From an uncultured Methanosarcinaceae archaeon (GTDB lineage: Archaea > Halobacteriota > Methanosarcinia > Methanosarcinales > Methanosarcinaceae), in contig CAWJYV010000008.1 of NCBI GenBank assembly GCA_963847185.1, positions 1,024,001 to 1,088,000 on the forward strand: a stretch of DNA of 64,000 nucleotides. Direction: 5' to 3'. Numbering within the stretch: the first letter of the stretch is position 1; each line of letters begins with the position of its first letter. A program made the translations under genes and the position numbers. The notes below the pieces were generated by a model. That model was given only the letters and a program-made list of their open reading frames with translations. It made no database searches and was not told the DNA's origin. This document shows, piece after piece, positions 8,708 through 47,156 of this stretch.

Positions 8708-9011
8708 TTTTTATTCCTTTTTGAGTTGATAAGTTAAGATGATCATAGTAGAATTAATAATGGAATAATAATGGAATTGATAGATTGATTTTCGGTAGAT
8801 TGATTTTCCTCGATTTCATGCCACAAGTTATAATGAGGTTGAATTAATTAACCTGATTTCGAGCTTCAATTTATGATGAGGCAAATTAGTTTTCATTTCA
8901 CACTGCAAGTACATAAGTGCTGTTAGCTTAAAGATAGTCTTTAATTTAATTTATAGAAACAGATGTATTAATAATAAATAAATTCAAAGCCAAATCAAAG
9001 TTTTGTTTAAA

Positions 9012-9941: not shown

Positions 9942-10099
9942 AAAAGGGTTAAAAAAGTAAGAATAGAAAAAAGAGAAAGAGTTGAAAGAAAAAAAAGTTA
10001 TGAGAAAAGATTGAAAAAGAAGAGGTTATGAGAAAAAATTGAAAAAGAAAAGGTTATAAAAACTCATTTTTCCTTTAAAACTTATTCTTCCTTTAAAAC

Positions 10100-11386
10100 T
10101 CATTCTTCCTTTTTCTTTTCCTCAAAGGCTTCCTTTACGATTTTCATGGCGCAGAGATTTCCGCACATCGAACAGGCATCACTTTCTGTCTTTCGGGCAT
10201 CCCGGATTTTGCGAGCTCTTTCGCCGTCGATTGCGAGTTCAAACTGCTTTTCCCAGTCAAGGTCCCTGCGGGCATAGGCCATTGCTAAGTCTTTTTCCCA
10301 TGCACGTTCTCTTTGACCTTCTTTTATAAGGTCTATGGTGTGAGCTGCAATTTTTGTTACAAGCAGACCTTCTTTGATATCGTCAAGGGTTGGAAGGGCA
10401 AGATGTTCAGAAGGGGTTACCATACAGAGGAAATCCGTACCGTACATTCCTGCGATTGCTCCTCCGATTGCGCCTGTAATGTGGTCAAAGCCAGGGGCAA
10501 TATCGGTAACAAGAGGGCCCAGGAGGTAAAGAGGGGCGTTATTACAGAGTTCCTTCATGCCTCTGACGCTGAGTTCGATCTCATTTAAGGGAACATGGCC
10601 AGGGCCTTCAACAAAAGTCTGGACATTGGCAGCCCTTGCCCGTTTTACAAGTTCTCCAAGCGTAATGAATTCCATGAATTTCGGGCGGTCGGAAGCATCG
10701 GCAATACAGCCAGGACGCATACCATCTCCAAGGCTCAGGGTCATGTCGTATTCTTTTGCGATTTCCATGAGGTAGTCGTATTCTGTGTAAAAGGGATTGT
10801 CTTCCCCGTTGTGCAGCATCCAGGCAAGTGTAAAAGAACCTCCGCGGCTAACGACATTCATTATTCTGTCACTCTGGCGCAGGCGTTCAAGGGAGTTTAA
10901 GTTGATGCCGACATGCACGGTTACAAAGTCCACGCCCTGTTTGGCATGTTTCCTGACAGCATTGAACATGTCATCAGACGTCATTTCCACAACAACTTTG
11001 CTGGAGGCTGCAGCCTGGTAAATCGGAACGGTTCCTACCGGAATGTTTACAGCTTTAAGGATGCGGGTGCGGATTTCATCCAGATCCCCGCCTGTGGAAA
11101 GGTCCATGACTGCATTAGCTCCCAGAGCTTCTGCAGCCTTTGCTTTTTCGACTTCAGCATCAATGTCAATACAGTCCCTGGAAGTTCCTATATTGGCATT
11201 GATCTTTGTGCTCATGTACTTGCCAATCCCGACAGGAAGGGTTTCTCGCCTATCGTTTTTAGGAATGGCAATCAGCCCTTTTGCCACGCAGGAACGGACA
11301 ACTTCGGGATCTATTCCTTCAGTTTTTGCTACGGCTTCTATTGAGGGGGTGATGATTCCCTTCTTTGCATCTTCCATCAGTGTCAT
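10100..11386 (-). CDS. thiC: Phosphomethylpyrimidine synthase ThiC (ThiC/BzaF family radical SAM)
   Basis: [34 protein letters not shown] and C-terminal CSMCGNLC cluster motif. Confidence 0.9.
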
Positions 11387-12070
11387 TGCTACTCCAGATT
11401 GTTAAGTGGATGAGACATTATAACGCGATATAAATTAGGAAGTACTGATAATAAAAATATGTCAATATTAACAATTGTAATTAAACCGACATATTATATT
11501 GACCCTATTAGAATAAATGGTATAAAGATAAATCGGGGTGTTTAAGTCTCGCAGAGTAGAACAGACAGTACACGGATATATATCTTTTCACATTCGTGAA
11601 GTCATTTTATAAAGTATAAGTAAACAAATATATAAATAATGTAAGCCTATTATGTATCGTGTAGATGTAGAAAAAATTGTGGGATCGATTAAAAAGTAAA
11701 GGATTTTTACAGATAGAAGACCTTATTAAACTGGCGTATACAGAAAAAAAATAAGAAAATGGAAGCTGGAAAGCTTTTCCTTTAAATTTCTCTATATGCT
11801 TTCTTGTGCATATTCTTACACATTTCCTTTGCATTTCTTACATATTTCCTTGAGATTTGTTTGAGATTTATATAATTTTATATATCAAAAATATCTTTAC
11901 CAGATCCCGAAAATGTCTCAAGCTGTTCCCTAAATATTCAACTGATCTCAACCGGATATCAATAATCTAAAAAATATCTTAACCGGATATCAAGATATTC
12001 CAACTAATCCAGAACAACCTTCAAATTATCAAAATTTAGATTATCACAATAACAAGTTAAGGTACTCGAT

Positions 12071-14662
12071 ATGACAGTTGTCGCATTTGCTGAAAAAAAC
12101 AAGGCAGCAGCCCAGATTGCCAGCATCCTGGGCGAAGGGGACGTGGAAAAGATTGTAGTAGAAGGGCTGCCCGCATATGAATTTAAGTGGAAAGGAGAGG
12201 AGTGGGTGGTCATGGGGCTGTCCGGGCATATAATGAATTACGATTTCCCGGAGCAGTACAATAAATGGAGTGATGTTTCCCCAGGAGTACTCCTTGAAGT
12301 TGACCCTGTAAAATTTGTGACAAGAGCAGAGTATGCAGCTGCGATAAAGAGGCTTGCAAAAAGGGCTCACAAGATTATTCTTGCCTGCGACTACGACAGG
12401 GAAGGAGAAAATATAGGGTTTGAAGCAAAAACTCTTGCTGAAGAGGTTACAAATATACCGGTTGCAAGAGCCCGTTTTTCAGCCCTCTCTCCAAAAGAGG
12501 TAAGAAAAGCTTTCGAGAACCTGACAGACCCTGATTATAATATGGCAATGGCTGCAGAGGCAAGGCAGATTCTGGACCTGAAAATGGGCGCAGCTTTCAC
12601 CCGTTTTGTCACGCTGTCTGTCAGGGAAAAGGCAAGGACAAAAGATGTCCTTTCAATTGGCCCCTGCCAGACCCCTACCTGTGGTTTTGTGTACGAGAGA
12701 GAGAAATCAATTCGGGCTTTTCAGACAAAGGACTTCTGGAAGATTACGGCAATTTTCTCTACAAAAGGCGGCGAATTTGAAGGTATCCACAGGGCTGGAA
12801 ACATCTATGACAAAGAAAAAGCCGCTGAAATCTTCAAAAAGCTGAAAGGAGCAAAAGAAGGGCTTGTTGCAAAAAAGACAGTAAAGGAAACAAAAATTAG
12901 TCCTCCGAACCCGCTTAATACTACTGAATTTCTAAAGCGGGCCTCAAAGTTCCTGGGAATCAGTCCAGAAGTTGCCCTGGAAGTTGCAGAACAGCTCTAC
13001 CTCGCAGGATTTACCAGCTATCCTAGAACAGAGACAAACAAATACGCAGATGACTTTGATTTCAAGTCTCTACTCTTTGATTTTGCGCGGCAGAAAGAAT
13101 ACAAGCCCTTTGCAGAATCTATTCTTGTAGTTCCGATTGTCCCGAAAAATGGGGATAAGGACGCCCACGATCACCCTCCTATCCACCCTATAAAGGCTGC
13201 TTCAAGAAGAGAGATCAGTGCTGCAGTAAATATCCCGCAGGCCCCCGAGGTCTACGACCTTATTGCAAGACACTTCTTAGCAAACCTTATGCCTGCAGCG
13301 GTTTTTGAGAAGACTCACCTCCATATGCTTGTTCAGGAAGATCCTTTTGACTCCTCAGGAACCGTGCTTAAGGATTCAGGCTGGCTCGAAGCCTATCCCT
13401 TCGAAAACAAGAAGGACAAGCTCCTTCCTTTTGTAGAGGAAGGAGAAAAGCTTGACATAAAAAAGTTGAGTAATACAAAATCAAAAACCAGCCCTCCCAA
13501 AAAGTTAACCGAAGCCGAGCTTCTGACCCTTATGGACAAAAACGGAATCGGGACAAAAGCAACAGCTCCGACTCATATTGAGACAAATAAAAAAAGAGGG
13601 TATTTCGAGACCAAAGGAAAGACAATTTCCATTCTTGATATTGGCTTTACCCTTATGGACGGCCTCTCCTGCACGGTGCCGATACTTGTCAGGCCTGAGA
13701 TTAGGGCAAAAATAGAGGCTCTTATACAGGAAGTTGAGGACGGGAAAAAAGAGTTTGAAACCGCCCTTGAGGATGGTACGGCCCTGATTAAAGAGATGTA
13801 CGCCCAGCTTGAAGCAAACAAAAAAGAATTGACTTCAAGCATAGCAGGCACAATAAAGGATGAAGCTGCCCTTGAGGACAAGAAAAACTATATCGGAGCC
13901 TGTAAGGCATGCGGGCATATCCTCAGGATCGTACAGACAGATTCCGGCCGTTTTGTTGGTTGCACAGGCTATCCGGACTGTAAAAACTCGTTTCCTCTGC
14001 CGAAAACCGGAGCTCTTACTATACTCAGGAGCAAGGAATGCAAAAAAGAAGGGGCCGCTGTCCTGAAAGTAGGAAGCAAGTACAACTGGGCTGTAGGTAT
14101 AGGGCCCTGCTTTACATGCGACCTTGAAAAGGAATGTTATCCTCCTGAAACCGTAGGACCCTGCCCTGAATGTGACGGGAGCATGTTCCTGATAACTTTC
14201 AAGGACAATCGCTTCCTGGGCTGTACAAAACGATGCGGGTATACACACTCAGTCCCAAAAACTGGAAAACTGACCCTGCTCGACAAAACCTGCGAAACCT
14301 GCGGCTGGAAGATGTTCAGCTTAAAAGAAGAAGGAGAAGCAGCTTCTGAAGAGAATTTATGTATAAACCGGCGCTGCAAGGAAGGTAGACAATACTGGAG
14401 AAATGCAGGCCCGGGAGCTGATTCCAGATCTCAGGCAAAGGTTTCTGTTAGTTCGGCAGGAAATTCAACGGCAGGCCAGACGACAGGCTCAACTGTTAAT
14501 TCTGGAAAGAGAAGGGCAGCAAGTTCAGTGAGCTCAACAACAGGTTTAAAAGCAGATTCAGCAACAATCCCAACGGCAGGCTCAAGAACAGGCTCGGCAA
14601 CCAGTACAGGAGTAAAAAAGGTTTCAAAAATATCCGGTGAAGGTCGAAAAGAGAATAAATAA
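12071..14662 (+). CDS. topA: Type IA DNA topoisomerase with C-terminal zinc ribbons and Ser/Thr/Lys-rich tail
   Basis: TOPRIM AEK and ACDYDREGE, catalytic SYPRTE, GIGTKAT, repeated CxxC ribbons. Confidence 0.93.
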   Translation: MTVVAFAEKNKAAAQIASILGEGDVEKIVVEGLPAYEFKWKGEEWVVMGLSGHIMNYDFPEQYNKWSDVSPGVLLEVDPVKFVTRAEYAAAIKRLAKRAHKIILACDYDREGENIGFEAKTLAEEVTNIPVARARFSALSPKEVRKAFENLTDPDYNMAMAAEARQILDLKMGAAFTRFVTLSVREKARTKDVLSIGPCQTPTCGFVYEREKSIRAFQTKDFWKITAIFSTKGGEFEGIHRAGNIYDKEKAAEIFKKLKGAKEGLVAKKTVKETKISPPNPLNTTEFLKRASKFLGISPEVALEVAEQLYLAGFTSYPRTETNKYADDFDFKSLLFDFARQKEYKPFAESILVVPIVPKNGDKDAHDHPPIHPIKAASRREISAAVNIPQAPEVYDLIARHFLANLMPAAVFEKTHLHMLVQEDPFDSSGTVLKDSGWLEAYPFENKKDKLLPFVEEGEKLDIKKLSNTKSKTSPPKKLTEAELLTLMDKNGIGTKATAPTHIETNKKRGYFETKGKTISILDIGFTLMDGLSCTVPILVRPEIRAKIEALIQEVEDGKKEFETALEDGTALIKEMYAQLEANKKELTSSIAGTIKDEAALEDKKNYIGACKACGHILRIVQTDSGRFVGCTGYPDCKNSFPLPKTGALTILRSKECKKEGAAVLKVGSKYNWAVGIGPCFTCDLEKECYPPETVGPCPECDGSMFLITFKDNRFLGCTKRCGYTHSVPKTGKLTLLDKTCETCGWKMFSLKEEGEAASEENLCINRRCKEGRQYWRNAGPGADSRSQAKVSVSSAGNSTAGQTTGSTVNSGKRRAASSVSSTTGLKADSATIPTAGSRTGSATSTGVKKVSKISGEGRKENK

Positions 14663-15184: not shown

Positions 15185-17693
15185 TTACTTCTTTTTATAC
15201 AGGAGTACTGCAAGCAAACCGGCTACTCCGTAATATATTTCAAAGTCTGGTGTACTCAAGATTTCTTTTTGTTCATTTTGTGGTTCTTTATTCGTTGTAT
15301 TGTTTTTATTAATTGTTTCAGGGTAATCAATCTCTGTTTTCGTTACAGTATCTTCAGGTGATGGTTTTGCTGTACCCGTTATAGCAAATGAAGAGAATCC
15401 TGAAGTTTTGGCTGTGAAATACAGGAATTTGTCATCTTCTCCTGACAGGTTTACTGGGAATTGCTCCCATTTTTTCTCGCTGTATCTGTCAAGAATAATA
15501 GAATCTTGATCGATCATTTTGTCCTTTATCCAGGATTTTTCAATCTTGAAACAGACGACTGGATTTTCTATGTTCTTAGAGGTTGCAACTCCTCCGTTTC
15601 CGACCCAGACATTAAACGACTTGTAAACCTCTCCAGAGGGTAGTTCGGGAACCAGAGTTGACTTTCCTTTCAGCATCTCTACAATAGTCGTGGTTTTACC
15701 AAAAGTTTTCGTTGAATCAAAGCTCACATACACGACACAGGTTGCATTCTTCGTGAAATCAAACTTTACAGTTTTTCCATTTGTAATAAACGCCTGTGAA
15801 AGTTCCTTTACCTGAACATTTCTTGAAGATTCTGGGGAACCGCCTGCACCACCTCCACTGGAACTACTATGGCTGCTTCCATCACTTGAGCTGCTTGGTG
15901 TAAGTACATTTATTGTAGAAAGTTTTGAGGCAGTTCCATTTGCGTTACTTACAGTCAGGTTGACAGTATAAGTTCCAGCATTTGCGTATATATAAACTGG
16001 ATTTATGTCACTGGAGTCAGACTGTCCATCGCCATTGAAGTCCCAGGTCCTTGAAGTTGCTTTCTGGGAAAGATCATTAAACTGCATTATCAGGGGAGCA
16101 TAACCCTCGGTAACGTTGCTACTGAAGTTTGCAACCGGAGTGTTTGGATCAGTAACAACTATGTAGCCTGGCCTTGACGTTGTATTGTTCCCTATAATGT
16201 TTCCCACGGTTAGACTAATTGTATAATTTCCTGGTTTCGTAAAAGTGTGAACTGTAGCCGAATCTTTTGAATCGGTACCATCGCTAAAATCCCAATACCA
16301 AGACGTAGGTTCTTCGACTTTACTTGTAGCCCCGCCTTTACTTGTAGCAGCGAATAACACCGTTAGAGGCGCTGTTCCAGAGGTTACATTAGTAGAAAAA
16401 TCTGCCACTGGTGCTTGTGGGGGAGTCACAGTAATATAATTCGGTTTCGTTATTGTGCTATTGCCTGCTTCATTTGCCACTGTTAAAGTAACGTTATACA
16501 CCCCTGGATTCGTAAAAGTGTGAGTTGCATTCGTAGCATGCTTTGAATTGATACCGTCTCCGGTGTCCCAATACCAGGAAGTTGGTACTCCACCAGTGCT
16601 GAGATCCGTGAATCGTACAACTAAAGGTAGAGTTCCAGAAGTTACGTTCGCGGTAAATTCAGCTACTGGTGGCAAGATGTTTGTGGCAGAAAGATCACTT
16701 ATATAGATGCCATTATCATTAACCCCACCATAAGCTACCTTCTATTCCCCATACAATAGTATCATTGTAGATGTCAGGTGTTGTGGAAGTCCCTTCTGGA
16801 TAAATATAGACTGGCGTGCTTTTTGCTGTAGGAATATCATAAACGTATACACCCGTATAACCAAATTGGTCATCGCCAGATTTTGAATATACGATTTTAT
16901 CCCCGTTTATGTCAACGTGAGTGCCGGTGTCGTCTCCAGCGTCAGCATATGAATTTGCGTATTCAGGTAAGGTATTACCTGTATTATCACTGGTGACATC
17001 TATAGTTTCTTTTGTATCGATGTTATACATCGAAATGTATCCCATTCTGGTGTAGAAGTCCGACCATATAACTTTGTTACCATAAATGTGTGGTCGGTAA
17101 AGATTACCGTCACGATGTCGGGCTAATATAGTCTCATTAGTGAGAATATCATATACATAGATACCTTCCGCGTCAATACCGTCATAAGAATATGCTATCC
17201 TGGTATCGTATATGTCCGGGTCCGTACCATCTGTCACTCTAGTCTGTGTGGATGTAGATATGTCCCGCATATATACTCCACCGTTTGCACTCCACACAAT
17301 TCTGTTGCCGTAAATAGCAGGTTTGCTCCAGCTGTCCACATCCTTTGTTATATACGTTTTTGCGGCAGTTGATATGTCATAAACCGTAAATCTTGGCACT
17401 CCACTGCTTTCATCATACCAAACTAATTTGTTACCGTAAATAGCTGGATGAGATGCTGCAGAAGAATCAACTGCAGTATCTGTTTTCGAGGTCAAATCAT
17501 AAACGTGAATAACACCACTGTCTGTCCATACCACTTTGTTATCATAGACAGCAGGATCAGATCCATTACCAATTCTCGTCACCTGTGCCGCTACCTGTGC
17601 CGCTGACGCCACGGATGAAATTAAAATCGAAAATACAAAAATCAAGGTTGCTGAAGCTAAGGCTATTGAATGTAACTTTTGCTTATCTTTCAT
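15185..17693 (-). CDS. Cell-surface protein: signal peptide, Methanosarcina beta-propeller, 3 PKD domains, PGF-pre-PGF domain, PGF-CTERM-like anchor; split by a +1 frameshift at ~16733
   Basis: ORFs 16719-17693 and 15185-16675 join as ...WGIEGS/YGGVNDNGIYISDLSATNILPPVAEF if one T is removed. PKD W.WDF.DG motifs; tail TPDF-TM-YKKK. Confidence 0.85.
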
Positions 17694-31276: not shown

Positions 31277-33472
31277 TTGAAAAACGTGGAATCATCCGTA
31301 CTTATAGTTATTATCCTTATTTCGTGTTTAATGAGCAGTTCATTTCTTGCTGCAGCTGTTGTAGAAAACTCTGAAGTTCCCCAAAATAATACATCTTGTT
31401 GTGCGCTTGAAACAGCACCTATGAACCCTGATTTTCAGGAATCCGGGGAGTCTGCTTCAATTGACCTTGTCTCCATAGTTGATGATCGTATATACGTGTC
31501 AGATGCAGGATACAAACCTTCTCCTGTAGATCTGTCCGAAATTGTGGAATCTGAAGTACTTGAAGGAAGACTGCTAGTGAGAGCTTCAGATGACATTCCG
31601 ACAGCATATGATTTGAGAAAAGAAGGTAAACTAACAGCTATAGGAAACCAGGGACAGATTGGAAGCTGCTGGGCTTTTTCAAGTATCGCTTCTCTTGAAT
31701 CCTATCTTTTAGGCACAGAAGGAAAAAGCTATGATTTTTCCGAAAACAATATGAAAAATCTTGTTTCAGAAAGCTATTCTGAGGGTTTTGACCTGACTCC
31801 TGAAGACGGAGGAAATGCATTCATGTCAACAGCATACCTTTCTCGCTGGGCAGGGCCTGTTAATGAATCCGAAGACCCTTACAGCGATTCATCAGTCAAT
31901 TCACCCACTGGGCTTTCTGAACAGAAACATGTGCAGGAAGTACTTTTCCTGCCATTAAGGACAGAGTCTCTGGACAATGAGATGCTCAAAAAAGCAATTA
32001 TGGAGTACGGGGCGATATATTCCACAATGTACTGGAATCAGGCCTGTTATCAGGAAAGCAATTACACCTATCGATGTATCACAAGTCTAACTCCAAATCA
32101 TGCTATAACCCTTGTGGGCTGGGATGACTCTTTTGATAGAAACAAATTTACTCTGGTCCCACCTGGAGACGGGGCTTTTATCGTAAAGAATAGCTGGGGT
32201 GAAAACTGGGGAGAGAATGGATACTTCTATATTTCTTATTATGATGCCAGAATGGGATATGATGAAAATGCCGTTTTTACGGCTGAGAAAAAAGATAATT
32301 ACGATTACATCTACCAGTATGACCCTCTTGGATGGGTGATATCAAAAGAGTATTCAGGAAGTTTAATTGCCTGGGGTGGGAATGTCTTTTCTTCGGAAAG
32401 AGATGAAACTCTCGGAGCCATAGGGTTCTATACTACTGATCTGAATACGGCTTATGAGATATATGTTTACAAGAACCCTGTAAGCGGTCCGCTTAATTCA
32501 AGAAGAGTATATGCTACAAGAGAAAGCGGTACATATTCTTTGCCAGGATATCACACCCACAAATTGAACTCTCCAGTGTCCCTGAATCCTGGAGAAAAGT
32601 TTTCAGTGGTTATAAAATTCACCAATCCTTCTGCTGGAGGGCCTCTTGCAGTCGAACAGCCCATTCTCTTTTACAGCAGCAAAGCACAGGCTAATTCCGG
32701 AGAGAGTTATGTGAGCAGTAACGGAATTACCTGGGAAGACATCTCCGGATCTTCAGAGGCAAATCTTTGCATAAAAGCTCTCACAACTACTGATATACTC
32801 CCTGAGGCAAATTTTTCCTCAAATATCAGAGGCGGAAATTATCCCCTCACAGTCCAGTTCATAGACCTCTCCAAAAATGCTTTTTCGTGGGAATGGGACC
32901 TGAACGGAGACGGACAAATAGATTCTACAGCTCAAAATCCAGTCTATACTTATGACGCTTACGGAAAGTACAATGTTTCTCTCAAAGTCAGCAACAGGAA
33001 TGGTATTGACTCCGAAACAAAACAAGATTACGTGACAGCAGCTTCTCTTTCGATCGTTTCAGCCAGCCCGGAAACATCTATCACAACCTATCAGGGAGAT
33101 ATGCAGGAGTTTAATCTCAACACAAACCAGATCTGCACTATAAGCTGGTACCTTAACGGAGAGATAAAAAGTTCGAACCTCCAGGTACAGAGCAGCTCAT
33201 ACTCTAACAGTAGCCTCTCTCCGGGATTCTATAATCTTACAGCATTTACCGAAATAGGAAATGAAGAAGTCATGTACAGCTGGAACTGGACAGTTCTTGA
33301 CTGGAATATCTGGGACAATCCGGCATCCCAGGGAGGCAAAAATGTTAGCACCGCAGAAATGAAAGAAGCTATTCATATCTATCTTAATGGAATGCAAATC
33401 TCCGAAACCGGAGCAAAAATAACAGATGAGAGGCTCAAAGAACTTATATATTTCTGGAAGGAAAATTCATAA
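31277..33472 (+). CDS. Secreted papain-family (C1A) cysteine peptidase with lectin-like, PKD and Ig-like domains and a dockerin-like C-terminal tail
   Basis: QGQIGSCWAF, NHAITLVGWDD, KNSWG catalytic motifs; YQYDPLGW lectin-like domain; WEWDLNGDG PKD. Confidence 0.92.
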   Translation: MKNVESSVLIVIILISCLMSSSFLAAAVVENSEVPQNNTSCCALETAPMNPDFQESGESASIDLVSIVDDRIYVSDAGYKPSPVDLSEIVESEVLEGRLLVRASDDIPTAYDLRKEGKLTAIGNQGQIGSCWAFSSIASLESYLLGTEGKSYDFSENNMKNLVSESYSEGFDLTPEDGGNAFMSTAYLSRWAGPVNESEDPYSDSSVNSPTGLSEQKHVQEVLFLPLRTESLDNEMLKKAIMEYGAIYSTMYWNQACYQESNYTYRCITSLTPNHAITLVGWDDSFDRNKFTLVPPGDGAFIVKNSWGENWGENGYFYISYYDARMGYDENAVFTAEKKDNYDYIYQYDPLGWVISKEYSGSLIAWGGNVFSSERDETLGAIGFYTTDLNTAYEIYVYKNPVSGPLNSRRVYATRESGTYSLPGYHTHKLNSPVSLNPGEKFSVVIKFTNPSAGGPLAVEQPILFYSSKAQANSGESYVSSNGITWEDISGSSEANLCIKALTTTDILPEANFSSNIRGGNYPLTVQFIDLSKNAFSWEWDLNGDGQIDSTAQNPVYTYDAYGKYNVSLKVSNRNGIDSETKQDYVTAASLSIVSASPETSITTYQGDMQEFNLNTNQICTISWYLNGEIKSSNLQVQSSSYSNSSLSPGFYNLTAFTEIGNEEVMYSWNWTVLDWNIWDNPASQGGKNVSTAEMKEAIHIYLNGMQISETGAKITDERLKELIYFWKENS

Positions 33473-38346: not shown

Positions 38347-41058
38347 ATGAATCAAAAATTTATATTATTTGGTGCGCTGCTAATTATGGCCTTTTTAGCA
38401 GGAACGGCAAGCGCAACTGGGAATACAGCCAATAGTCCAAGTATCACATTAAGCTGTAACGAAACAGGTCCTTTCAAGATGGGAGATGTGGTAACTCTCA
38501 CTGCAACCTTCAATATACCAATCTCTAGTGCGGAATTAACTGTTGAGGACGATGTTTCTTTACCGATTACAATGGACAATATAAGTGACGCCCAATGCAG
38601 CAATGGCATTGTTTGGTCTTGTGAGTACGAAGTTCCAGACGATGTAAATAGTGCAGTGGATGCAACCGTATTAGGAGTACGCCCAAATGGAAAAACAGTT
38701 GATGAGACTTTCTTGAATGTTTTTGAAATTGACAATATAGCTCCAGAGTTTACGAAAATTACACCGGAATCAGATATTGTCAGTGAAAGTTGTGTACCCT
38801 TCAATTTCAGTGCTTACGATGAAACAAACAATGAAATATGCTACGACCTCTTTATCGATGGTGCCTCAAAGAGTACAGGAACTATAACCTCTGGGACATA
38901 TAAGCAAATTGAGCTTAACCTAAATGACGGCTATTACAAATGGGAAGTCCAACTCAGTGACGATGCCGGAAACATAGGTTCCAGTGGTATCGGTGATCTG
39001 TATGTGGACACATGCGCTCCGGAAGTAACACTTCTTTCTCCTGAAGAGGGCTATGTCTGTTCTCAAGCCGACTACATCAACTCAACAACGGGTCTTATTT
39101 TCGAATTCACTGCTGAAGATACTTTAGCTGAAAAATATGATGATCTTAAGCTCAACTATGTACTGTATGTTGACGGAGAACCTCTTGACGAAATCGACTA
39201 TGACGGAACCGAACTCCCCGACGGATTCGAACTTCCTGACGGATTCGAACTTCCCGACGGATTCGAACTCCCTGAAGGATTCGACATTGGAGGAAGTGAT
39301 CTTGGAAGTGATCTTGGAAGTGACCTTGGAAGTGGTTTTGGAAGTGGTTCAGGAACCATGGATTCAGGTGAATCTGTAGAAGTTGATGATTCTTACTTGG
39401 CTGACGGAGCGCACAACTGGTCCGTTTCAATTGAAGATGAAGCTGGAAACAGCGTTATGAGTGGAGTCCGGAACTTCTACGTAGATATGGAAGGGCTTAA
39501 TGTCGAACTCGTTTCTCCTAATGATGAGTATGCTGGAAGTGACTCAGCGTTTAACTTCAGTGTTTCAGGAGGAGCAGGACTGCCTTTCGAGTGTAAACTG
39601 CTCATTAATGGTAAGGTAGTTAAAACTGAAGACTGCGAGGCAGGAAAAAGTAGCTCTTTTGTTGTAGGGGAAGATGAGGTTAACTACTATGCATTAAGTA
39701 CTGAATTAGCCGATGGAGAGAACATGAACTGGACAGTTGACGTTACTGATTGTGCAGGCAACAACTATGTACCTGAGCCGTATTACTTCTCTCTTGATAC
39801 CATATCTCCGGCCAGTGTGGCAAACCTGGCTGTTGTAGATGCAATAGGTGAGACTCAGTGGTCTTATACGTACGATTATCCTGCACTGTTTGTTAGCTGG
39901 AATGAAAATACCGAAGAAGATCTTGCCTCTTCTCCTTATGAGATTTACATCAGCGACTCTTGTCCAGGCTCTATAGAAGAGATGGAAGAAATAGAATTTG
40001 CACAAGATGATACGGACTTTACACTAGAAGATACGGGCCTTACACTAGGAAATACGGCAGATACGGTAGATACGGACTTTTACATTGAAGAATACGAGGG
40101 AGAGCCTCTTGTCTACGGCAAAGATTACTGGGTAGCAGTTATCGCGCGGGACAGAGCAGGCAACTACAACGATTGTTTCTCCTATTGGGGCCCGGTTCAC
40201 ACGTATGAAGATATGAATATTACTCTTGATGCAGGCTGGAACCTGAAATCTGTGCCAAAGAGGCTGGTCTCATCGCTTTCATGCAAAGAAGATATCTTTG
40301 GAGAAGGCTGCACAGTCATTTATTGGGATGGCAGTTGCTGGCAATTCCCTGAGACTATCGAACCATGTAAGGGTTACTGGGTCTACAGTCCTGTAGCTTG
40401 CGAAAACAGCATAAAATTCAAACCAATGTCATATGACAGTACAACTCCTGATGCACCTGCATCTCTCTGCCTCTCCGAGGGCTGGCAGATGATAGGGCAC
40501 ACATCTACGCAACCTGCAGTATATTCTACAACCTTATCTTCACTCAAAGGTACTCTTACAGACTACAAGTACTCTAACCTGATCACCTATACCCACGATG
40601 AAGGTTGGGGAGGCATAATTCCTGAAACAGGACTTTTAGACCAGCTCACTGACGACACAAGTATAGGCAGTGCTTTCATTAATAGCACCAGTGCATCTCC
40701 GGTAGAAACGCTTCAGTATGAAGGCTACATGGTTCCTGGACAGGGATACTGGGTCTTTATGAAAGAAGACGGCACCTACGCATCCATCGAAAACGTGTAT
40801 AACAGCCAGAATGATTACTCTGATGACGGCATTGATGACGGCATTGATGATGGAATTGATGACGGAATCAACCTTGATGATCTCCTTAACGGTGGAACTG
40901 GTGATGAAGCAACTACTCCTGAGAATGTTGTAACTACTCCTGAGAATGTTGTAACTACTCCTGAGAATGTTTCTAGCTCATCTACTCCCGGAAACGCGAC
41001 TACTTCTGGAAACACAACTGATGGAGAAAACGCAACTACTCCTGGAAACACAACTTAA
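38347..41058 (+). CDS. Large secreted acidic Ig/FN3-like repeat protein with a C-terminal duplicated GWN...PGxGYWV domain and no membrane anchor
   Basis: Signal peptide; repeated D..AP / D.AGN Ig-like motifs; two copies of L..GW(N/Q)....P/H...P..GYWV; Thr/Pro-rich tail. Confidence 0.85.
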   Translation: MNQKFILFGALLIMAFLAGTASATGNTANSPSITLSCNETGPFKMGDVVTLTATFNIPISSAELTVEDDVSLPITMDNISDAQCSNGIVWSCEYEVPDDVNSAVDATVLGVRPNGKTVDETFLNVFEIDNIAPEFTKITPESDIVSESCVPFNFSAYDETNNEICYDLFIDGASKSTGTITSGTYKQIELNLNDGYYKWEVQLSDDAGNIGSSGIGDLYVDTCAPEVTLLSPEEGYVCSQADYINSTTGLIFEFTAEDTLAEKYDDLKLNYVLYVDGEPLDEIDYDGTELPDGFELPDGFELPDGFELPEGFDIGGSDLGSDLGSDLGSGFGSGSGTMDSGESVEVDDSYLADGAHNWSVSIEDEAGNSVMSGVRNFYVDMEGLNVELVSPNDEYAGSDSAFNFSVSGGAGLPFECKLLINGKVVKTEDCEAGKSSSFVVGEDEVNYYALSTELADGENMNWTVDVTDCAGNNYVPEPYYFSLDTISPASVANLAVVDAIGETQWSYTYDYPALFVSWNENTEEDLASSPYEIYISDSCPGSIEEMEEIEFAQDDTDFTLEDTGLTLGNTADTVDTDFYIEEYEGEPLVYGKDYWVAVIARDRAGNYNDCFSYWGPVHTYEDMNITLDAGWNLKSVPKRLVSSLSCKEDIFGEGCTVIYWDGSCWQFPETIEPCKGYWVYSPVACENSIKFKPMSYDSTTPDAPASLCLSEGWQMIGHTSTQPAVYSTTLSSLKGTLTDYKYSNLITYTHDEGWGGIIPETGLLDQLTDDTSIGSAFINSTSASPVETLQYEGYMVPGQGYWVFMKEDGTYASIENVYNSQNDYSDDGIDDGIDDGIDDGINLDDLLNGGTGDEATTPENVVTTPENVVTTPENVSSSSTPGNATTSGNTTDGENATTPGNTT

Positions 41059-41162
41059 GGAAGTGATTCTGAATAAGAATCGGATTTCAAAAAGTAACTG
41101 TTCAGCCATAGGTTGAACGTTTATTTTTCTTTTTATTGCTTGTGTAGCAACGGAGGAACATT

Positions 41163-41843
41163 ATGGGAAAATTATTAAAAAATGATTTGTTAGTAACAGC
41201 TGTACTGTTAATTCTTTTCTTGGCTGTCCTTCAAACAGCCGTGGCAGAAGAAGATGTCCCCCCTCTCCCAATGACAGTTAAAGGAGTTGCCCTTATTGAT
41301 GGAAATCCGGCCCCCAAAGGAACTGTTGTTGCAGCTTATCTTAATGGGGAGCAGGTAAAAGAATGCCTCATAGATACTTCTTCAGGAGACTATTGTTTCT
41401 GGATTTCCGGAACCGCTGAAGATGAAGGAAAGCCTGTTACCTTTAAGGTGGACGGAAAAGACATAGAAGGAAATATTCCCTGGGAATCTGGAAAGCTGGT
41501 TACCTCTCTCGAACTATCTGAGGGAAAGATGATCGGGTCCGGAAGTTCTGAAAAAAGTTCAGATTCAGATTCAAGCTCCAGATCTTTGATAGGAAATGGT
41601 GAATCAGGAGCTTTAGAAGAGAATTCCAAAGCCAAGGTCATTGAAAGTTCAGTTCCTGAAGCGAATGTAACGGTTCAGAAGCCTAAAGGACTAAATTCTG
41701 AAGACAAGGAGACGGCGAAATCTTCCGAAGATTCTTCTAAATCAAACCGCGCTTCAGGTTTCCAGATTGGCTATGCAATTGTAGGCATACTTTTTCTCGC
41801 TTTCGGATTCAATCGCGAAAGGGAGGGGAGAAGGAAGCCCTGA
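41163..41843 (+). CDS. Surface protein: signal peptide, PP..G...DG..AP.GT domain, Ser-rich stalk, PGF-CTERM-like anchor (SGF-TM-basic)
   Basis: PPLPMTVKGVALIDGNPAPKGTVVAAY; tail ASGFQIGYAIVGILFLAFGFNREREGRRKP. Confidence 0.85.
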   Translation: MGKLLKNDLLVTAVLLILFLAVLQTAVAEEDVPPLPMTVKGVALIDGNPAPKGTVVAAYLNGEQVKECLIDTSSGDYCFWISGTAEDEGKPVTFKVDGKDIEGNIPWESGKLVTSLELSEGKMIGSGSSEKSSDSDSSSRSLIGNGESGALEENSKAKVIESSVPEANVTVQKPKGLNSEDKETAKSSEDSSKSNRASGFQIGYAIVGILFLAFGFNREREGRRKP

Positions 41844-41894
41844 TGTGATTTTTTCAAAAAGTTTTCATTAGTAAAGTGAAAATTTCAAGGTGAC

Positions 41895-42440
41895 ATGATG
41901 ATCATTAAAGAAAAATATATAAGAATTTCATCATTCCTGATTATTTTGATACTAGGCATATCATTCGTTCCGGGTGTATCTGCCAGCGGTCCCCCTTCAA
42001 TTCCAAATGTGTTTAAAGGAAATCTACTTGCAGATGGTGCAAATGCACCTGTAGGAACCATAATCTCAGCATATATAGATTCCGAACTTGTTGGCTGGAA
42101 CCTTATTAAAGAAGTAGGGGAATACGAGCTGACAGTTAACAGTACCGAGAAAAATAACGGAAAGACAATAGTTTTCAAGCTGGGTGATGTAGGATCCGAG
42201 CCTGTTTCCGCAACATACAAATATGGGGCTCCTCCAGTGAATCTTGATTTATCTTTCAAAGGAGAAGATTTTTCAGCCATTGTTGTAGGATCTGATGAAC
42301 TCATAAACAGGTATGCCGGTATTGATAAGAAATTCTCTGCTGAAGAAATTAAAGAAATTGTGAATGACAAGACCATATCCACTGGGATGAAATACGCGAT
42401 TTTGAAAATTTACTTTGCCGACGGGTGGGATCGAATATGA
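41895..42440 (+). CDS. Secreted adaptor-like protein: PP..G...DG..AP.GT domain plus short helical dockerin-like tail
   Basis: PPSIPNVFKGNLLADGANAPVGTIISAY is homologous to the upstream gene. Tail LINRYAGIDKKFSAEEIKEIV...ISTGMKYAILKIYF. Confidence 0.8.
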   Translation: MMIIKEKYIRISSFLIILILGISFVPGVSASGPPSIPNVFKGNLLADGANAPVGTIISAYIDSELVGWNLIKEVGEYELTVNSTEKNNGKTIVFKLGDVGSEPVSATYKYGAPPVNLDLSFKGEDFSAIVVGSDELINRYAGIDKKFSAEEIKEIVNDKTISTGMKYAILKIYFADGWDRI

Positions 42441-43597
42441 AATGGCCTGAGTTTAAAATTGCTTTTGTGGTGCTCCTGGCCCTGACCTTATGTACAGCCC
42501 CGGCCTCCGCAGGCAGTGCAGAAAGGGTTCTTCCTTCTTCGGTTAACGCCAATGAACAGTTCCAAGTAACTATCAATGTTGCTGATTACGGTGCTGCCGG
42601 GCAGGTTCTTGAAAAGCTTCCTGAAGGTTTCACTTTTATCGGCTCAACCCTTCCTGAAGGAGCAACATCTGTAAATGGCAATGAGGTTTCTTTCATACTA
42701 ATGAGTGAAAAAAGCTTCGGTTACACTCTTAAAGCTCCTGCCTCAGGTGGGACATACAAATTTAGTGGAATTTTGAGAGACATAAACAAAAATGAATTTT
42801 CAATTATCCCTGCTACTTCTTCAATTGAAGTAAAGGGAGCTTCGAGCGGCTCAAGCGGAAGTTCAGGCGGAAGTTCGGGCGGAAGCTCGGGTGGAAGTTC
42901 AGGTGGAAGTTCAGGTGGAAGCTCAGGCGGCGGTGCAGCCGGGGGTTCCCCAGAACCTCAGAGCAATGTGGAAGCTAAGGAAATTTCCCAGGCAGTAGTT
43001 AATAAAGGAACACATGTAACATTCGAGTTTCCAAAGAACGCAACCTGTGTAAAATATGTAGGATTTGATGCCAAGAAAACTCTCGGAAAAATCACAACAA
43101 TTGTCGAGATGCTAAAAGGTCAGTCCAAACTTATTTCTAGCCTGCCTGAAGGCACAGTTTATAAAAATGTTAATATCTGGGTAGGTTCAGGAGGAATAGC
43201 AAACTCTGACAATATCGAAAATGCAGTTATCGGATTTAAGGTCGAAAAATCCTGGATCGAGAAAAATGGAATCGATATATCCTGTCTGGCTCTCTGGTAC
43301 TACAATGAGGCATGGAGTAAACTTGAAACCAAAAAAATGAGTGAAGATGACACTTACATTTACTTTGAAGCAAAAACCTCGGGTTTCGGTCACTTCGTTA
43401 TTGTTGAGAGCAAAGATAAAAAGGCTTCCGATTCGGTAGAAATTACACCATCTACTCAAGAAGACTCAAAATCCAACCTCGCTTCAGATTCAGAAAAATC
43501 ATCCGAAGATGACTCGAGCTTTTTGCCTGGATTTGAGTCCGCAGCAGCAATTGGAATTATCGGAACTGCATATTGCATATTGAGAAGGAAACTGTAA
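42437..43597 (+). CDS. Surface protein: cohesin-like beta-sandwich, Gly/Ser linker, PGF-pre-PGF domain, PGF-CTERM anchor
   Basis: ATGA overlap with the previous stop. SAERVLPSSV...E.LPEGFTF domain; AGGSPEPQSNV...KE PGF-pre-PGF start; LPGFE-TM-RRKL. Confidence 0.88.
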   Translation: MKWPEFKIAFVVLLALTLCTAPASAGSAERVLPSSVNANEQFQVTINVADYGAAGQVLEKLPEGFTFIGSTLPEGATSVNGNEVSFILMSEKSFGYTLKAPASGGTYKFSGILRDINKNEFSIIPATSSIEVKGASSGSSGSSGGSSGGSSGGSSGGSSGGSSGGGAAGGSPEPQSNVEAKEISQAVVNKGTHVTFEFPKNATCVKYVGFDAKKTLGKITTIVEMLKGQSKLISSLPEGTVYKNVNIWVGSGGIANSDNIENAVIGFKVEKSWIEKNGIDISCLALWYYNEAWSKLETKKMSEDDTYIYFEAKTSGFGHFVIVESKDKKASDSVEITPSTQEDSKSNLASDSEKSSEDDSSFLPGFESAAAIGIIGTAYCILRRKL

Positions 43598-44461
43598 ATT
43601 GTGAAATAATTTTTTAAGCAACTTTAACAGTTGCTTATATTCTTATTTTTAAATTCCTGGTTCTGTAGAATCTTCAAAATATTCAAATAAATGTTACTTT
43701 GAACATTTTTGTATAATCTTCTGTATAAGATTTTGAAATATTTTCTCTTTTGTATTAAGGCCCTCCTAATTGCTTTCATTATTTTGGACTTAAATTATTC
43801 AGAATGCTGAATTTGAATTAAATTTAGAGTTTCAGGATAAATTAGTATCTTTCACAACTGTAAATGAAAATTTATAGATTATCTATTTTAGAAAAATTTA
43901 TATCAGTTGTCAAACAATCTTATTTATAATATCTTCACATAGGAACGTATAAATATACGTAACTTGTGTTTTAACTAAAAAATTATATCCAGTCGACCCT
44001 TTGGATTTGACAAATCTACCACTGAGTAGAAGTATATACCTTACACATTGGGCTGATTAATGGCATTGGTACAAGAATGGGGGGATAACTTTCCTGAGTG
44101 CTGTAAGCATCAATGAAAGTTACTATTTAGTGTACCAAAGTTAAAAATTACCATATTTCTTTCGTAAATGAGTTTAGAAGAGGCAGGGGGCTCTCTTATT
44201 GAAACTCTGAAAGGATTTTGATCTTTATAGCGCAACGAGGAGTGGGGTAAAAATGAATTCATAACTGAGTTTGGCAATCTAACGTTTATTTTATTTAAAA
44301 TATGAAAAGCAAATATGCCCAACTTTTTATGTTTTTTAATAACCTAAGACTTCATTTGAAACTGATCCTGCTCATTGACTTTAGAATATTATTGAAAACA
44401 AATTATATTGAACATTTTAAGCGGAGTAAAATTGGACATTTGCTAAATCTAGGTGCAAAAC

Positions 44462-46951
44462 ATGAGACAAAAATCAGTACCATTTAGCCTGCTATTAATT
44501 ATATCACTTTTAGCATGGACAGCAAATGCGGGTATAGATGAAAACGTTTCAGAAGAAAATTTTATAGAAGAAGGCATTTCTGAAGAGGATATTTCTGAAG
44601 AGGATATTTCTGAAGAGGATATTTCTGAAGAGGATATTTCTGAAGAAGATACACCTGAAGAAGATATGTCTGAAGAAGATATTTCTGAAGAGGATATTTC
44701 TGAAGAGGATATTTCTGAAGAGGATATTTCTGAAGAGGATACATTTGAAGAAGATAACACAAAAGAGATTGTAGAAATATCCTACAACGCATCGGGTCCT
44801 TTCAAGATGGAGAATGTTGTAGGTATCACCGCAACTTTCAGTAAACCCGTTTCTCTTGCAACATTAACAGTTAATGATGACTCTTCTTCTCCTATTGACA
44901 TGGTCAGTATAAACGATACAGTCTGGTATTGCGAGTATGTGGTGGTTCCTGATGAAGTTAATGATCCAGTAGATGTATTCATATCTGCAGTTGACAAAGA
45001 CGAAAACAGTATCGATGGAACTGATGCTGAAGCTTTTGTGATTGATAATACAGCTCCGGAACTTACCCTGAATGAACCTGAGTTAAAATCTGACAACACA
45101 AATCGTGTAGTTGTCGGTACAAACGATGTTGTTTTCAACTTCAGTGCTTCCGATAATTTCGATGACAGCATAAGTTATACTTTCTACTTCAATGGTACAG
45201 AGATTGATACCGGAGAACTGAATCGAGAAGAATGTAAATTAGTAGAGCTTAATAATTTGGATGAAGGATATTACACATGGGAAGTCAAACTCGAAGACGA
45301 CTTAGGGAATGCATGTTCCAGTGGTGTTGTTGATCTGTATGTGGATACAGAAGATCCAGAAGTGACACTTATTTCCCCAGAAGATCACCTTATTGATACA
45401 GGAGACTGCCTTAATCTTAGTTTTACTGCAAAAGACGATTTTACAGATCAGTATAAAGACCTGAAACTTTATTATGACTTATCCATTGATGGAGAGCTTG
45501 TTGAAGAACAGAGTTCGGTAGAGATGCGCCCCTGGCAGTATATACAGGTCCCATGCAGTGACCTTAAAAATGGAGCTCATGAATGGTCTGTTGATATTTA
45601 TGATGATGCAGGAAACAACGTTACGAGTGAAACTCGGTACATATATGTAGACGAGGAAGATCTTAGAGTTTTGCTCATTTCTCCGGATGGTGGATACGCT
45701 TCAGCAAATACAACATTTAAATTCAGAGTCTCAGGCGGAGCAAAGATGCCTTTCGACTACAAACTGCTCATTAACGGCGAAGAAGTAGAGAGCAGAATTT
45801 GCGAAGAAGATACCATTTCAGAAGATGAGGAAGAAGACGTTTCAGAAGATGAGGGAGAAGAAGACATTTCAGAAGATGGGGGAGAAGACTTTTCAGAAGA
45901 CGAGGGAGAAGAAGACGATAACATTTTTGAAGAAGGAGAAAATACACTTTTCTTGGGAGAAGAGTCTACAAATTATTATACTTTAGAAGCTGAAGTGCCT
46001 GACGGGGATGGTATAGAATGGACAGTACTTATTACTGACTGTACAGGCGATACCTATCAACCTGATCCATACTATTTCTCTCTGGATACTGAGGCTCCTG
46101 AGCGTGTAGCAAACCTGAGTATAATAAATGTGGCAGGCGAGACTGAGTGGGATGATTCCGATCGTCCCAGACTGTACGTTGGCTGGGATGAAAATACTGA
46201 AGATGATCTTTCCTCGATGCTTTATGAGGTTTTTGTTAATAACTTTGCACCTTCATCTCTCGAAGATATGGAAAAAATTGGGTCTACATCTGATACGAGT
46301 TTCTATATTGATGAATACGGAGGAGAGCCTCTTGCAGACGGTAAAGAGTATTGGGTGGCCGTTATTGCTCGGGACAACGCAGGAAATTACAACAATTGTT
46401 TTGTTTCCATTTATGGCCCTGTTCAGATATGTGGAGATGTGAAATCAGAAAGTGTAGAGAATTTAATTTCAGATACAAATTCCGGAATTTTGACAGGAAC
46501 CGAAAGTGAAGATGTAAATACCGGAAGTTTAAATGATTCAATTTCGAATACAAATTCCGAGCTTTTAGAGGAAGAGGAATTATCAGAAAGTTCAAATGAC
46601 TCAGCTTCAAACACAAGTTCCGGAATTTTGACAGAAACTGAATTATCGGGAAATTTGAGTGATTTAACTTCAAACACAAATTATGAATTTTTGGCTGAAG
46701 ACGAAAATTCGGAAAATCTAAGAGAGAAATTCAGTACAGGGATCCTCAGAAGTATAATTCCTCAAGTGAATAAAACATCTCTAAAGACTGTGAATAAAAA
46801 TTCACTGGCTAAGAATCAGGCATCGGAATACGCAGAAGATCCTGCTGGACCAAAAAGTGCTCCAGGTTTCCATATAATTTGTTCAGCTATGAGCATCCTT
46901 CTGCTTGCCTTCTGGTTAAATCTCAAGAGGAAAACGGGTAGAAAGCTCTGA
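44462..46951 (+). CDS. Paralog of the 38347 protein with EEDIS repeats and its own PGF-CTERM anchor
   Basis: Colinear homology from GPFKM to YWVAVIARD.AGNYN.CF...GPV; tail APGF-TM-KRKTGRKL. Confidence 0.88.
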   Translation: MRQKSVPFSLLLIISLLAWTANAGIDENVSEENFIEEGISEEDISEEDISEEDISEEDISEEDTPEEDMSEEDISEEDISEEDISEEDISEEDTFEEDNTKEIVEISYNASGPFKMENVVGITATFSKPVSLATLTVNDDSSSPIDMVSINDTVWYCEYVVVPDEVNDPVDVFISAVDKDENSIDGTDAEAFVIDNTAPELTLNEPELKSDNTNRVVVGTNDVVFNFSASDNFDDSISYTFYFNGTEIDTGELNREECKLVELNNLDEGYYTWEVKLEDDLGNACSSGVVDLYVDTEDPEVTLISPEDHLIDTGDCLNLSFTAKDDFTDQYKDLKLYYDLSIDGELVEEQSSVEMRPWQYIQVPCSDLKNGAHEWSVDIYDDAGNNVTSETRYIYVDEEDLRVLLISPDGGYASANTTFKFRVSGGAKMPFDYKLLINGEEVESRICEEDTISEDEEEDVSEDEGEEDISEDGGEDFSEDEGEEDDNIFEEGENTLFLGEESTNYYTLEAEVPDGDGIEWTVLITDCTGDTYQPDPYYFSLDTEAPERVANLSIINVAGETEWDDSDRPRLYVGWDENTEDDLSSMLYEVFVNNFAPSSLEDMEKIGSTSDTSFYIDEYGGEPLADGKEYWVAVIARDNAGNYNNCFVSIYGPVQICGDVKSESVENLISDTNSGILTGTESEDVNTGSLNDSISNTNSELLEEEELSESSNDSASNTSSGILTETELSGNLSDLTSNTNYEFLAEDENSENLREKFSTGILRSIIPQVNKTSLKTVNKNSLAKNQASEYAEDPAGPKSAPGFHIICSAMSILLLAFWLNLKRKTGRKL
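44574..44752 (+). repeat. In-frame 15-bp tandem repeat encoding (ISEED)n, ~12 copies
   Basis: atttctgaagaggat repeated. Confidence 0.9.
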
Positions 46952-47005
46952 TGAGTTTTTTCAATTACTATGAGAGTCTTTGATTCTGTATTGTAATCAA
47001 AACCG

Positions 47006-47118
47006 TTTTTCTCATTTCTATTTTTCTCATTTCTATTTTTCTCATTTCTATTTTTCTCATTTCTATTTTTCTCATTTCTATTTTTCTCATTTCTATTTTT
47101 CTCATTTCTATTTTTCTC
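47006..47118. repeat. Tandem repeat, 15-bp unit (tttttctcatttcta), ~7 copies
   Basis: Directly visible between convergent stop codons. Confidence 0.93.
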
Positions 47119-47156
47119 TTTTTAAAGTTCCATTTTTTCAAAGTAATTTAACAATA

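Follow-up and report, generated by a model that had tools for sequence, protein, structure and literature searches.

A widespread and unannotated pair of putative docking domains, designated here GWN and PP, is encoded by a cluster of five genes (A-E) of an uncultured Methanosarcinaceae archaeon. The cluster is located in a window of 64,000 nucleotides (nt) of contig CAWJYV010000008.1, which is the whole stretch of DNA that has been analyzed, and gene coordinates are positions in this window, with the five genes on the + strand. Gene A codes for a secreted protein rich in immunoglobulin (Ig)-like domains that carries GWN near its end and has no membrane anchor, and gene B codes for a small anchored protein that begins with PP. 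GWN and PP probably bind each other and so tether A to the cell, and the pair would have become dispensable in the anchored fusion protein encoded by gene E. The original prediction, made from the letters of the sequence, had already proposed such a receptor-ligand pair, and the proposal is now supported by gene adjacency, co-diversification of the pairs, the phylogeny of E, the prediction of the complex and the location of the predicted interface on conserved tryptophans, all of this support being computational.

The genes are separated by 104 nt (A-B), 51 nt (B-C) and 864 nt (D-E), and genes C and D overlap by 4 nt. The parts of genes A and B are the following:

38347-41058, + strand: gene A, 903 amino acids (aa), with an N-terminal hydrophobic signal and without a C-terminal hydrophobic segment
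38347-40200, + strand: signal peptide and Ig-rich passenger of A (residues 1-618), with Big_13 Ig-like domains
40201-40800, + strand: GWN domain of A, a duplicated beta unit (GWNLKSVP...EPCKGYWV, then GWQMIGHT...PGQGYWVF)
40801-41058, + strand: C-terminal tail of A and stop codon, low-complexity, acidic and Thr/Pro-rich, with no hydrophobic anchor and with tandem repeats at 40821-41055
41163-41843, + strand: gene B, 226 aa, with a signal peptide (residues 1-28) and a Ser/Glu-rich stalk
41241-41525, + strand: PP domain of B, about 95 aa, starting with EDVPPLPMTVKG
41754-41840, + strand: anchor of B, SGF followed by 16 hydrophobic residues and a basic tail

These architectures agree with the description of A as a secreted, anchorless protein with a duplicated GWN..GYWV end and of B as a PP domain on a stalk with a C-terminal anchor. 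Sequence alignment revealed that GWN is a true internal duplication (GWN..SxP...EPxKGYW, then GW..IG....GYW), which is kept in 21 of 21 aligned sequences from several genera. The structure model of GWN reached a predicted local distance difference test score (pLDDT) of 73.9 and a predicted template modelling score (pTM) of 0.75. No match to GWN was found among Pfam, NCBIfam and PDB sequences, and the model gave no Foldseek match to PDB folds at E <= 0.001 (best VIA Z 3.7), a result that does not by itself make the modelled domain a new fold. A search of the Protein Atlas returned only unnamed clusters, and the homologues of gene A are named 'hypothetical' or 'Ig-like domain-containing'. The PP domain of B was modelled as a small beta-sandwich (pLDDT 88.3) whose best Foldseek matches are weak to moderate (E 9e-4 to 3e-2, template modelling (TM) score about 0.5) and include the beta subunit of pyrogallol transhydroxylase, the SusC NTE domain, transthyretin and carboxypeptidase D/N domains. 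A weak match of PP to the anchor SlaB of the surface layer (S-layer) stands at rank 12 (8qox_B, TM 0.55, E = 0.012) and corresponds to a generic beta-sandwich. PP had no match among Pfam, NCBIfam and PDB sequences either, and the 89 homologues of gene B are all unnamed or 'hypothetical protein', those named by organism being from Methanosarcina. A literature search, with most subscription journals outside its coverage, found no description of GWN or PP domains.

Binding between both domains is predicted by co-folding of GWN (40201-40800) with the PP domain of B (41241-41525), each with its own alignment. Three runs gave ipSAE (interaction prediction score from aligned errors) values of 0.80, 0.80 and 0.79, whereas the best of three controls reached 0.00, and the mark was therefore passed in this check, which the original prediction had suggested. 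In a calibration of the tool this mark was reached by 116 of 157 solved complexes and by 2 of 215 mismatched pairs, figures that are a rough guide here as custom alignments were used. In the complex the pLDDT of the partners was 89-90 and the contact agreement between runs was at least 91%, and the PDB holds no sequence relative of GWN or PP that the model could have memorised. The predicted GWN contacts are G12, W13, I40, W60, Y62, W95, 125-130, G135-G138, I140, W184 and F186, so that both repeats would form one site that includes the conserved tryptophans. Conservation is higher at these contact residues than in the remainder of GWN (0.73 vs 0.49, Mann-Whitney p = 9e-5). On the PP side the predicted contacts comprise residues 2-14, which form the N-terminal strand of the mature protein (EEDVPPLPMTVK), together with residues 52-56 and 84-86; P10 is invariant and P7 near-invariant, both being in predicted contact.

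Nine congeneric loci have been compared with the cluster. The order A-B-C-D is kept in 8 of them and the A orthologues of all nine end without an anchor. The possibility that A is a truncated gene that has lost its anchor was ruled out because these orthologues and the GWN proteins of distant families are equally anchorless. In a scan of 121 genomes from 16 genera of the family, 54 genomes had a GWN match and 58 a match to the PP profile, each in 10 of the 16 genera and with nearly equal counts per genus. When single-sequence queries were used, 66 of 81 PP matches were located up to 3 kb downstream of a same-strand GWN match and, conversely, 42 of 93 GWN matches had such a downstream PP match; the PP profile search gave an adjoining PP match to many of the remaining GWN matches of the family.

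In a scan of the phylum (301 genomes from 100 genera), 117 genomes representing 46 of 100 genera carried GWN, and 87 genomes representing 38 of 100 genera carried PP. Outside the family, among the matches listed, 49 of 102 GWN matches had a listed PP match within 2 kb downstream, and this was found in 31 of 49 genomes. The gaps between the GWN and PP domain matches outside the family were mostly of 63-115 nt, a length consistent with a signal peptide preceded by a stop codon and a short spacer. The co-occurrence of both domains across genomes, proposed initially as a check, is seen in the near-equal family counts and in the recurring adjacency, with exceptions in four families (f12, f4, f13 and f11) that are considered below.

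At ten distant loci GWN was placed at the extreme C-terminus, with no C-terminal hydrophobic segment, in 16 of 16 GWN open reading frames (ORFs), which code for unanchored proteins of 474-1871 aa. Nine of the 10 loci contain one or more pairs in which the GWN gene is followed by a gene beginning with PP, and a transmembrane segment with basic residues forms the end of 10 of 12 PP-only proteins. The passenger domains of GWN proteins are PKD, NosD/beta-helix, DUF3821, Oxidored_molyb, Big_13 and DUF11. Oxidored_molyb, a molybdopterin-binding oxidoreductase domain, was found in GWN-tagged proteins at two loci of another family (L039, 7079-10849, and L041, 2947-6591), and therefore the tag is also present on enzyme-like passengers.

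The same two domains are combined in longer series in other families. At locus L036 (genome G192, 3704-12472, minus strand) a gene for a 1104-aa GWN protein is followed by one for a 1179-aa protein with PP, DUF3821, PKD and GWN and by another for a 629-aa protein with two PP domains and a transmembrane segment, and at locus L037 (genome G306, 3475-9010) two adjoining proteins, both about 910 aa long, each combine a C-terminal GWN with three internal PP domains. To judge from their domain order, the three-tier series of L036 and the L037 proteins are natural multi-tier, scaffold-like forms.

These forms bear on a reading in which GWN-PP is mainly a head-to-tail polymerisation joint of surface fibres, donor-strand-like and not an anchor, with A capping a short structure based on B or C. 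The predicted interface does use the N-terminal strand of PP (residues 2-14), as a donor strand would be used in pili or threads, and other families have proteins that combine both domains or carry PP several times. Strands around residues 52-56 and 84-86 of PP are also in predicted contact, and GWN modelled alone has the pTM of 0.75 given above. Against this reading, the window has no protein with both domains, the membrane anchors of 10 of the 12 PP-only proteins at distant loci fit a termination at the membrane, and the existence of internal PP domains indicates that no free N-terminal donor strand is needed. A role as a polymerisation joint has been given very little probability.

In a different reading, A carries GWN at its tip as a ligand-binding adhesion module, for glycans for example, the PP proteins are unrelated small membrane proteins, and E is an anchored paralogue without the adhesive tip. 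Carbohydrate-binding sites typically display conserved tryptophans on their surface, and those of GWN would suit such a site; GWN has no fold match that speaks against it and shows a weak structural match to the carbohydrate-binding module 5klc (Z 2.9). Nevertheless, the PP gene that follows almost every GWN gene at 63-115 nt, the lack of anchor in the GWN proteins of all examined loci and the proteins with an N-terminal PP and a C-terminal GWN are left unexplained, and an adhesive function of this kind appears highly improbable.

Co-diversification was analyzed with 81 adjacent GWN-PP pairs, of which there are up to 5 per genome. The distance matrices of GWN and PP were correlated (Mantel r = 0.736), and shuffling of partners within genomes, confined to the 15 genomes with 2-5 pairs, gave a mean r of 0.649 with a standard deviation of 0.025, the observed value being reached in 0 of 5000 shuffles. 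This result indicates that the pairs evolve as units, which is consistent with cognate binding without being proof of it.

Gene E provides a further line of evidence on the tethering of A. Its parts are the following:

44462-46951, + strand: gene E, 829 aa, with a signal peptide, an (EEDIS)n acidic repeat and a B-like stalk, and with no GWN and no PP domain
44771-46426, + strand: A-like Ig region of E
46862-46948, + strand: anchor of E, APGF followed by a transmembrane segment and a basic tail
46835-46964, + strand: 3' end of E, matching that of B (41727-41857) across the stop codon, a reciprocal best blastn match

Proteins A and E share 40% identity over 637 alignment columns (E = 6e-129), a similarity that involves residues 104-655 of E and ends at A618/E655 (GPVH/GPVQ), directly before the GWN domain, as the original prediction had described. 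The tails of B and E showed 32% identity over 92 aa in a single pairwise protein comparison (E = 8e-7). At the DNA level the 3' ends of both genes are reciprocal best non-self matches in the 4.04-Mb genome, with 68% identity over 131 nt (E = 6e-5), and the match extends 13-14 nt beyond both stop codons, which agrees with the earlier remark that the similarity runs past the stop. Small-set protein searches likewise matched the E tail with the tails of B proteins from 4 other species (1e-4 to 1e-10). An E orthologue with the same B-like tail was present in 1 of 9 congeneric loci, that of the closest relative. In the tree of the Ig region the two E sequences form a clade nested in the Methanosarcina A clade (support 100/99), and GWN is carried by every other member of this clade and by outgroups from two other genera; therefore, E lost GWN. 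The tree and the tail together indicate that E is the descendant of a GWN-bearing ancestor in which GWN was exchanged for a B-type stalk and anchor, in agreement with its interpretation as an A-B fusion without GWN and PP.

Several results weigh against GWN and PP being a tethering pair, or limit what can be drawn from the data above. The complex model supports GWN-PP binding without showing it, the score being the model's own confidence, and the PP contact residues, taken together, show no higher conservation than the other residues of the domain (0.41 vs 0.48, p = 0.93). Adjacency and co-diversification would also arise from mere co-inheritance of the genes and their duplication as a unit. 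The counts of GWN and PP diverge in some families (14/15 vs 0/15 in f12, 4/8 vs 0/8 in f4, 19/38 vs 6/38 in f13 and 1/19 vs 6/19 in f11). In f12 a small anchored ORF is located directly after the GWN gene at 6 of 6 examined loci, with a weak PP match in only 1 of the 6, and in f4 such an ORF was found at 0 of 2 loci. Some Methanosarcina genomes contain unlinked extra GWN-like and PP genes. With respect to E, the similarity between the tails of B and E is weak at the protein level, and the B-E pair was missing, at E <= 10, from the results of a genome-wide, composition-corrected tblastn search with the tails of E, B and D. The claim that the stalk and anchor of E match those of B is sustained by the pairwise and small-set protein comparisons and the reciprocal DNA match, but not by the genome-wide protein search. 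Finally, the possible docking of the C tail on the N-domain of D, described below, is plausible and is based on a 4-nt overlap, a conserved gene order and one C-D fusion.

Some of these points would be accommodated if the GWN and PP proteins were co-expressed in one surface structure without mutual binding, adjacency reflecting co-regulation or joint inheritance and the complex prediction being a false positive. Neighbouring genes often pass or fail complex predictions regardless of real binding, co-diversification can follow duplication as a unit, and the unconserved contact set of PP points in the same direction. On the other hand, the contrast between GWN-PP and the best control and the scarcity of mismatched pairs at the mark (2/215) argue against this reading, as does the location of the predicted contacts on conserved GWN tryptophans. 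In addition, the C-terminal position of GWN, the N-terminal position of PP and the asymmetry of the anchors hold in distant families, and the loss of GWN coincides exactly with the gain of an anchor in E. Co-expression without binding is regarded as unlikely, and the binding pair that tethers A to the cell is preferred.

Several Methanosarcina genomes carry a single extra PP protein, of about 250 aa (G104:C1:367347-367643, G107:C1:4242618-4242920, G118:C1:431013-431315 and G055:C1:213731-214033), and a single extra GWN-like protein, which is encoded apart from the extra PP locus (G055:C1:1792453-1792953, G071:C1:3127991-3128527 and others). Neither of these unlinked proteins is present in the genome from which the window comes.

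Genes C and D could provide a second tier of attachment. Their parts are the following:

41895-42440, + strand: gene C, 181 aa, with a signal peptide only and no anchor; PP domain at 41985-42272
42273-42437, + strand: conserved tail of C, ending in KYAILKIYFADGWDRI, with YFADGWDRI as final letters
42437-43597, + strand: gene D, 386 aa, with a signal peptide and a Gly/Ser linker between the N-domain and PGF_pre_PGF
about 42515-42826, + strand: N-domain of D, DUF11/BatD-like (BatD 8.5e-4, below its cut-off)
about 42953-43405, + strand: PGF_pre_PGF domain of D (TIGR04213 at 8.4e-60)
43526-43594, + strand: end of D, LPGF followed by a hydrophobic stretch and RRKL

The N-terminal domains of B and C, both of the PP..P..G..AP.GT type, share 33% identity over 87 aa (E = 8e-12), which confirms the reading of C as a PP domain with a tail. 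In its own genome GWN occurs once, PP is found only in B and C, and the C-tail type and the D N-domain type occur once each, all these copies being within the A-D cluster. The names that had been given to the other two parts find no support in the family models. The C tail had been called dockerin-like, but at E <= 0.1 Dockerin_1 (PF00404) matched neither A-E nor 3 orthologues of C, and at E <= 0.001 it had no match across the whole genome, a control with M. acetivorans being positive; a feature search with the C tail produced a sub-threshold match of 0.80, within the chance range, to a cluster with 16% Dockerin_1 members. The N-domain of D had been called cohesin-like, and no match to Cohesin (PF00963) was obtained in D, in its orthologues or in the whole genome, the N-domain and its orthologues scoring only as BatD/DUF11-like and below the cut-off.

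In the congener G055 (locus L022) a shortened A of 565 aa with an intact GWN (3419-5116) is followed by a gene (5318-6376) for a single 352-aa protein in which the PP domain of C is joined directly to the linker, PGF_pre_PGF domain and anchor of D, and the locus is without B, without the C tail and without the N-domain of D. To judge from its architecture, this C-D fusion, a single case, parallels the logic of the original prediction, here for a pair formed by the C tail and the N-domain of D.

Protein C has 181 aa here and 270-284 aa in 8 congeneric orthologues (L016 6938-7750, L017 6416-7237, L020 6713-7567, L023 6444-7271 and others), which carry an extra Ig-like domain of about 90 aa (Invasin_D3/Big_13-like) between PP and the tail. 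The comparison indicates that this domain has been lost from C in the genome of the window.

The genome encodes an archaeosortase A (TIGR04125, 260.5 bits, above the cut-off, G000:C7:144599-145432) and 22 PGF_pre_PGF proteins, which include D and a PKD-repeat protein encoded at 15185-16675. Residues 173-323 of D scored 201 bits with PGF_pre_PGF (TIGR04213, cut-off 28), so D is a member of this family. The tails of B, D and E gave no match to PGF-CTERM models at E <= 10, such short models being easily filtered out; a D orthologue scored 13.7 bits with PF18204, below its 18.8 cut-off, and the D tail weakly resembles the tails of PGF-anchored families. The anchor of B had been labelled PGF-CTERM-like, and in both B and E the tripartite layout of (P/S)GF, hydrophobic stretch and basic residues is present in the sequence, but the label receives no match from the PGF-CTERM models. 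Portions of A, B and C are matched at >= 95% identity by RNA-library contigs from 2 studies. Among these, the contig at 40942-41365 bridges the A/B gap, which is not proof of a single transcript as DNA may be present in RNA libraries, and cover was little for D and almost none for E, although contigs of this kind cannot show absence.

According to the explanation proposed, A-D would be an operon-like cluster by which a secreted, Ig-rich surface protein is displayed non-covalently. A would be exported without an anchor, its two GWN beta units forming one aromatic-lined site. Mature B begins with the transthyretin-like PP domain, whose PP..P strand and a single sheet edge would be captured by this site. 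Being held in the membrane by its C-terminal (S/P)GF, transmembrane and basic anchor, B would fasten A to the cell, a tethering role that we infer from the architecture of both proteins. C, with the same PP domain and no anchor, probably competes for the site on A as an adaptor, and its conserved helical tail may sit on the N-domain of D, which would be anchored as a PGF-pre-PGF protein; both steps are of the same inferred kind. E would be a lineage-specific duplicate of A in which a B-type stalk and anchor replaced GWN; it carries its own anchor and so would need no partner.

Other features of the window surround these genes. In-frame tandem repeats form acidic or Gly/Ser low-complexity inserts at 44540-44756, 45814-45916, 39201-39346 and 42851-42930: the repeat at the N-terminus of E is (EEDIS)n (15 nt x 12), a second acidic insert is also located in E, A contains (DGFELP)n and (GSDL)n, and the linker of D contains (SGGS)n. 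The differences between A and E consist mostly of such low-complexity repeat inserts. A non-coding 15-nt tandem repeat, TTTTTCTCATTTCTA, is present in 7.8 copies with 99% matches at 47006-47122, between E and a convergent radical-SAM gene. Secreted surface proteins encoded nearby are a papain-like protease with lectin-like and PKD domains (31277-33472) and the PKD-repeat protein with PGF_pre_PGF mentioned above (15185-16675).

Three known systems can be compared with GWN-PP. Dockerins are Ca2+-binding helical modules of 60-70 aa. As in the cohesin-dockerin system of bacterial cellulosomes, a small terminal docking module, which GWN would be here, is carried by diverse secreted passengers, a putative complementary module is placed on anchored or adaptor proteins, and there are multi-module scaffoldin-like proteins and multi-tier chains. 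The differences are the lack of sequence relation of cohesin and dockerin to GWN or PP and the nature of the modules, since the GWN tag is a double beta domain of about 180 aa and the proposed PP receptor is modelled as a transthyretin-like sandwich of about 95 aa with a proline-rich leading strand. Canonical cohesin and dockerin proteins, including non-cellulosomal ones such as those of Archaeoglobus, are described in anaerobic methanotrophic archaea (ANME) and other archaea in PMC9012536, where true scaffoldins are said to be missing outside ANME among archaea. The docking concept is therefore not new to the lineage, but the GWN-PP domain pair appears new. The principle of an unanchored cargo on an anchored or adaptor partner fits the architecture and the adjacency of the genes, with GWN-PP binding as its predicted element.

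In Sulfolobales the genes of the S-layer proteins SlaA and SlaB are neighbours. Their assembly (PDB 8qox) resembles the A-B pair in that a large secreted protein is accompanied by a small beta-sandwich partner with a C-terminal membrane anchor, and it is this small partner, not the large protein, that holds the assembly on the membrane. In contrast to SlaA-SlaB, with which there is no sequence homology, GWN-PP is found on many passengers per genome, with up to 5 pairs, and evidence of a lattice is lacking here; SlaB is further distinguished by a coiled-coil stalk, as described in PMC11641113. GWN-PP is assigned to neither the cohesin-dockerin nor the SlaA-SlaB family. The PGF-CTERM/archaeosortase A system resembles the cluster in part, through the PGF_pre_PGF domain and LPGF end of D, the archaeosortase A encoded in the genome and the (P/S)GF ends of B and E. 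It differs in that attachment is covalent and by the protein's own tail, whereas the cargo A is tail-less and is proposed to borrow the anchor of its partner.

Beyond this cluster, it is conceivable, as a tentative proposal, that GWN-PP constitutes a phylum-wide and unrecognised archaeal surface docking code, an analogue of cohesin-dockerin built from unrelated folds that tags dozens of secreted passengers, including enzyme-like ones (molybdopterin-oxidoreductase and NosD-like domains, for example), and forms multi-tier membrane-anchored chains or scaffolds by means of proteins with both domains or with PP in several copies. Pairings may also be specific to paralogues within one cell. In Methanospirillum hungatei, PMC11641113 reports an unexplained N-terminal extension of about 100 aa in the S-layer paralogue Mhun_0425 and the absence in Mhun_2513 of the PGF-CTERM present in its twin. 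These proteins may use the same docking pair because a protein with PP, DUF3821 and GWN exists at L036, and the unanchored S-layer paralogues of Methanomicrobiales, as well as the paralogues with an N-terminal extension of about 100 aa, may be explained by GWN-PP.

Surface retention of archaeal proteins outside the S-layer is known mainly through PGF-CTERM/ArtA lipid anchoring, transmembrane tails and a few canonical cohesin-dockerin cases. If the docking reading is true, it would account for the retention on the cell of many large secreted proteins, now named 'hypothetical' or 'Ig-like', in methanogens and their relatives. It would also provide an annotation rule, by which a C-terminal GWN marks a cargo and an N-terminal PP with a transmembrane segment marks an anchor, and the pairing would predict which residues are important. 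Finally, GWN-PP could become an orthogonal tag for protein display or assembly in methanogens.

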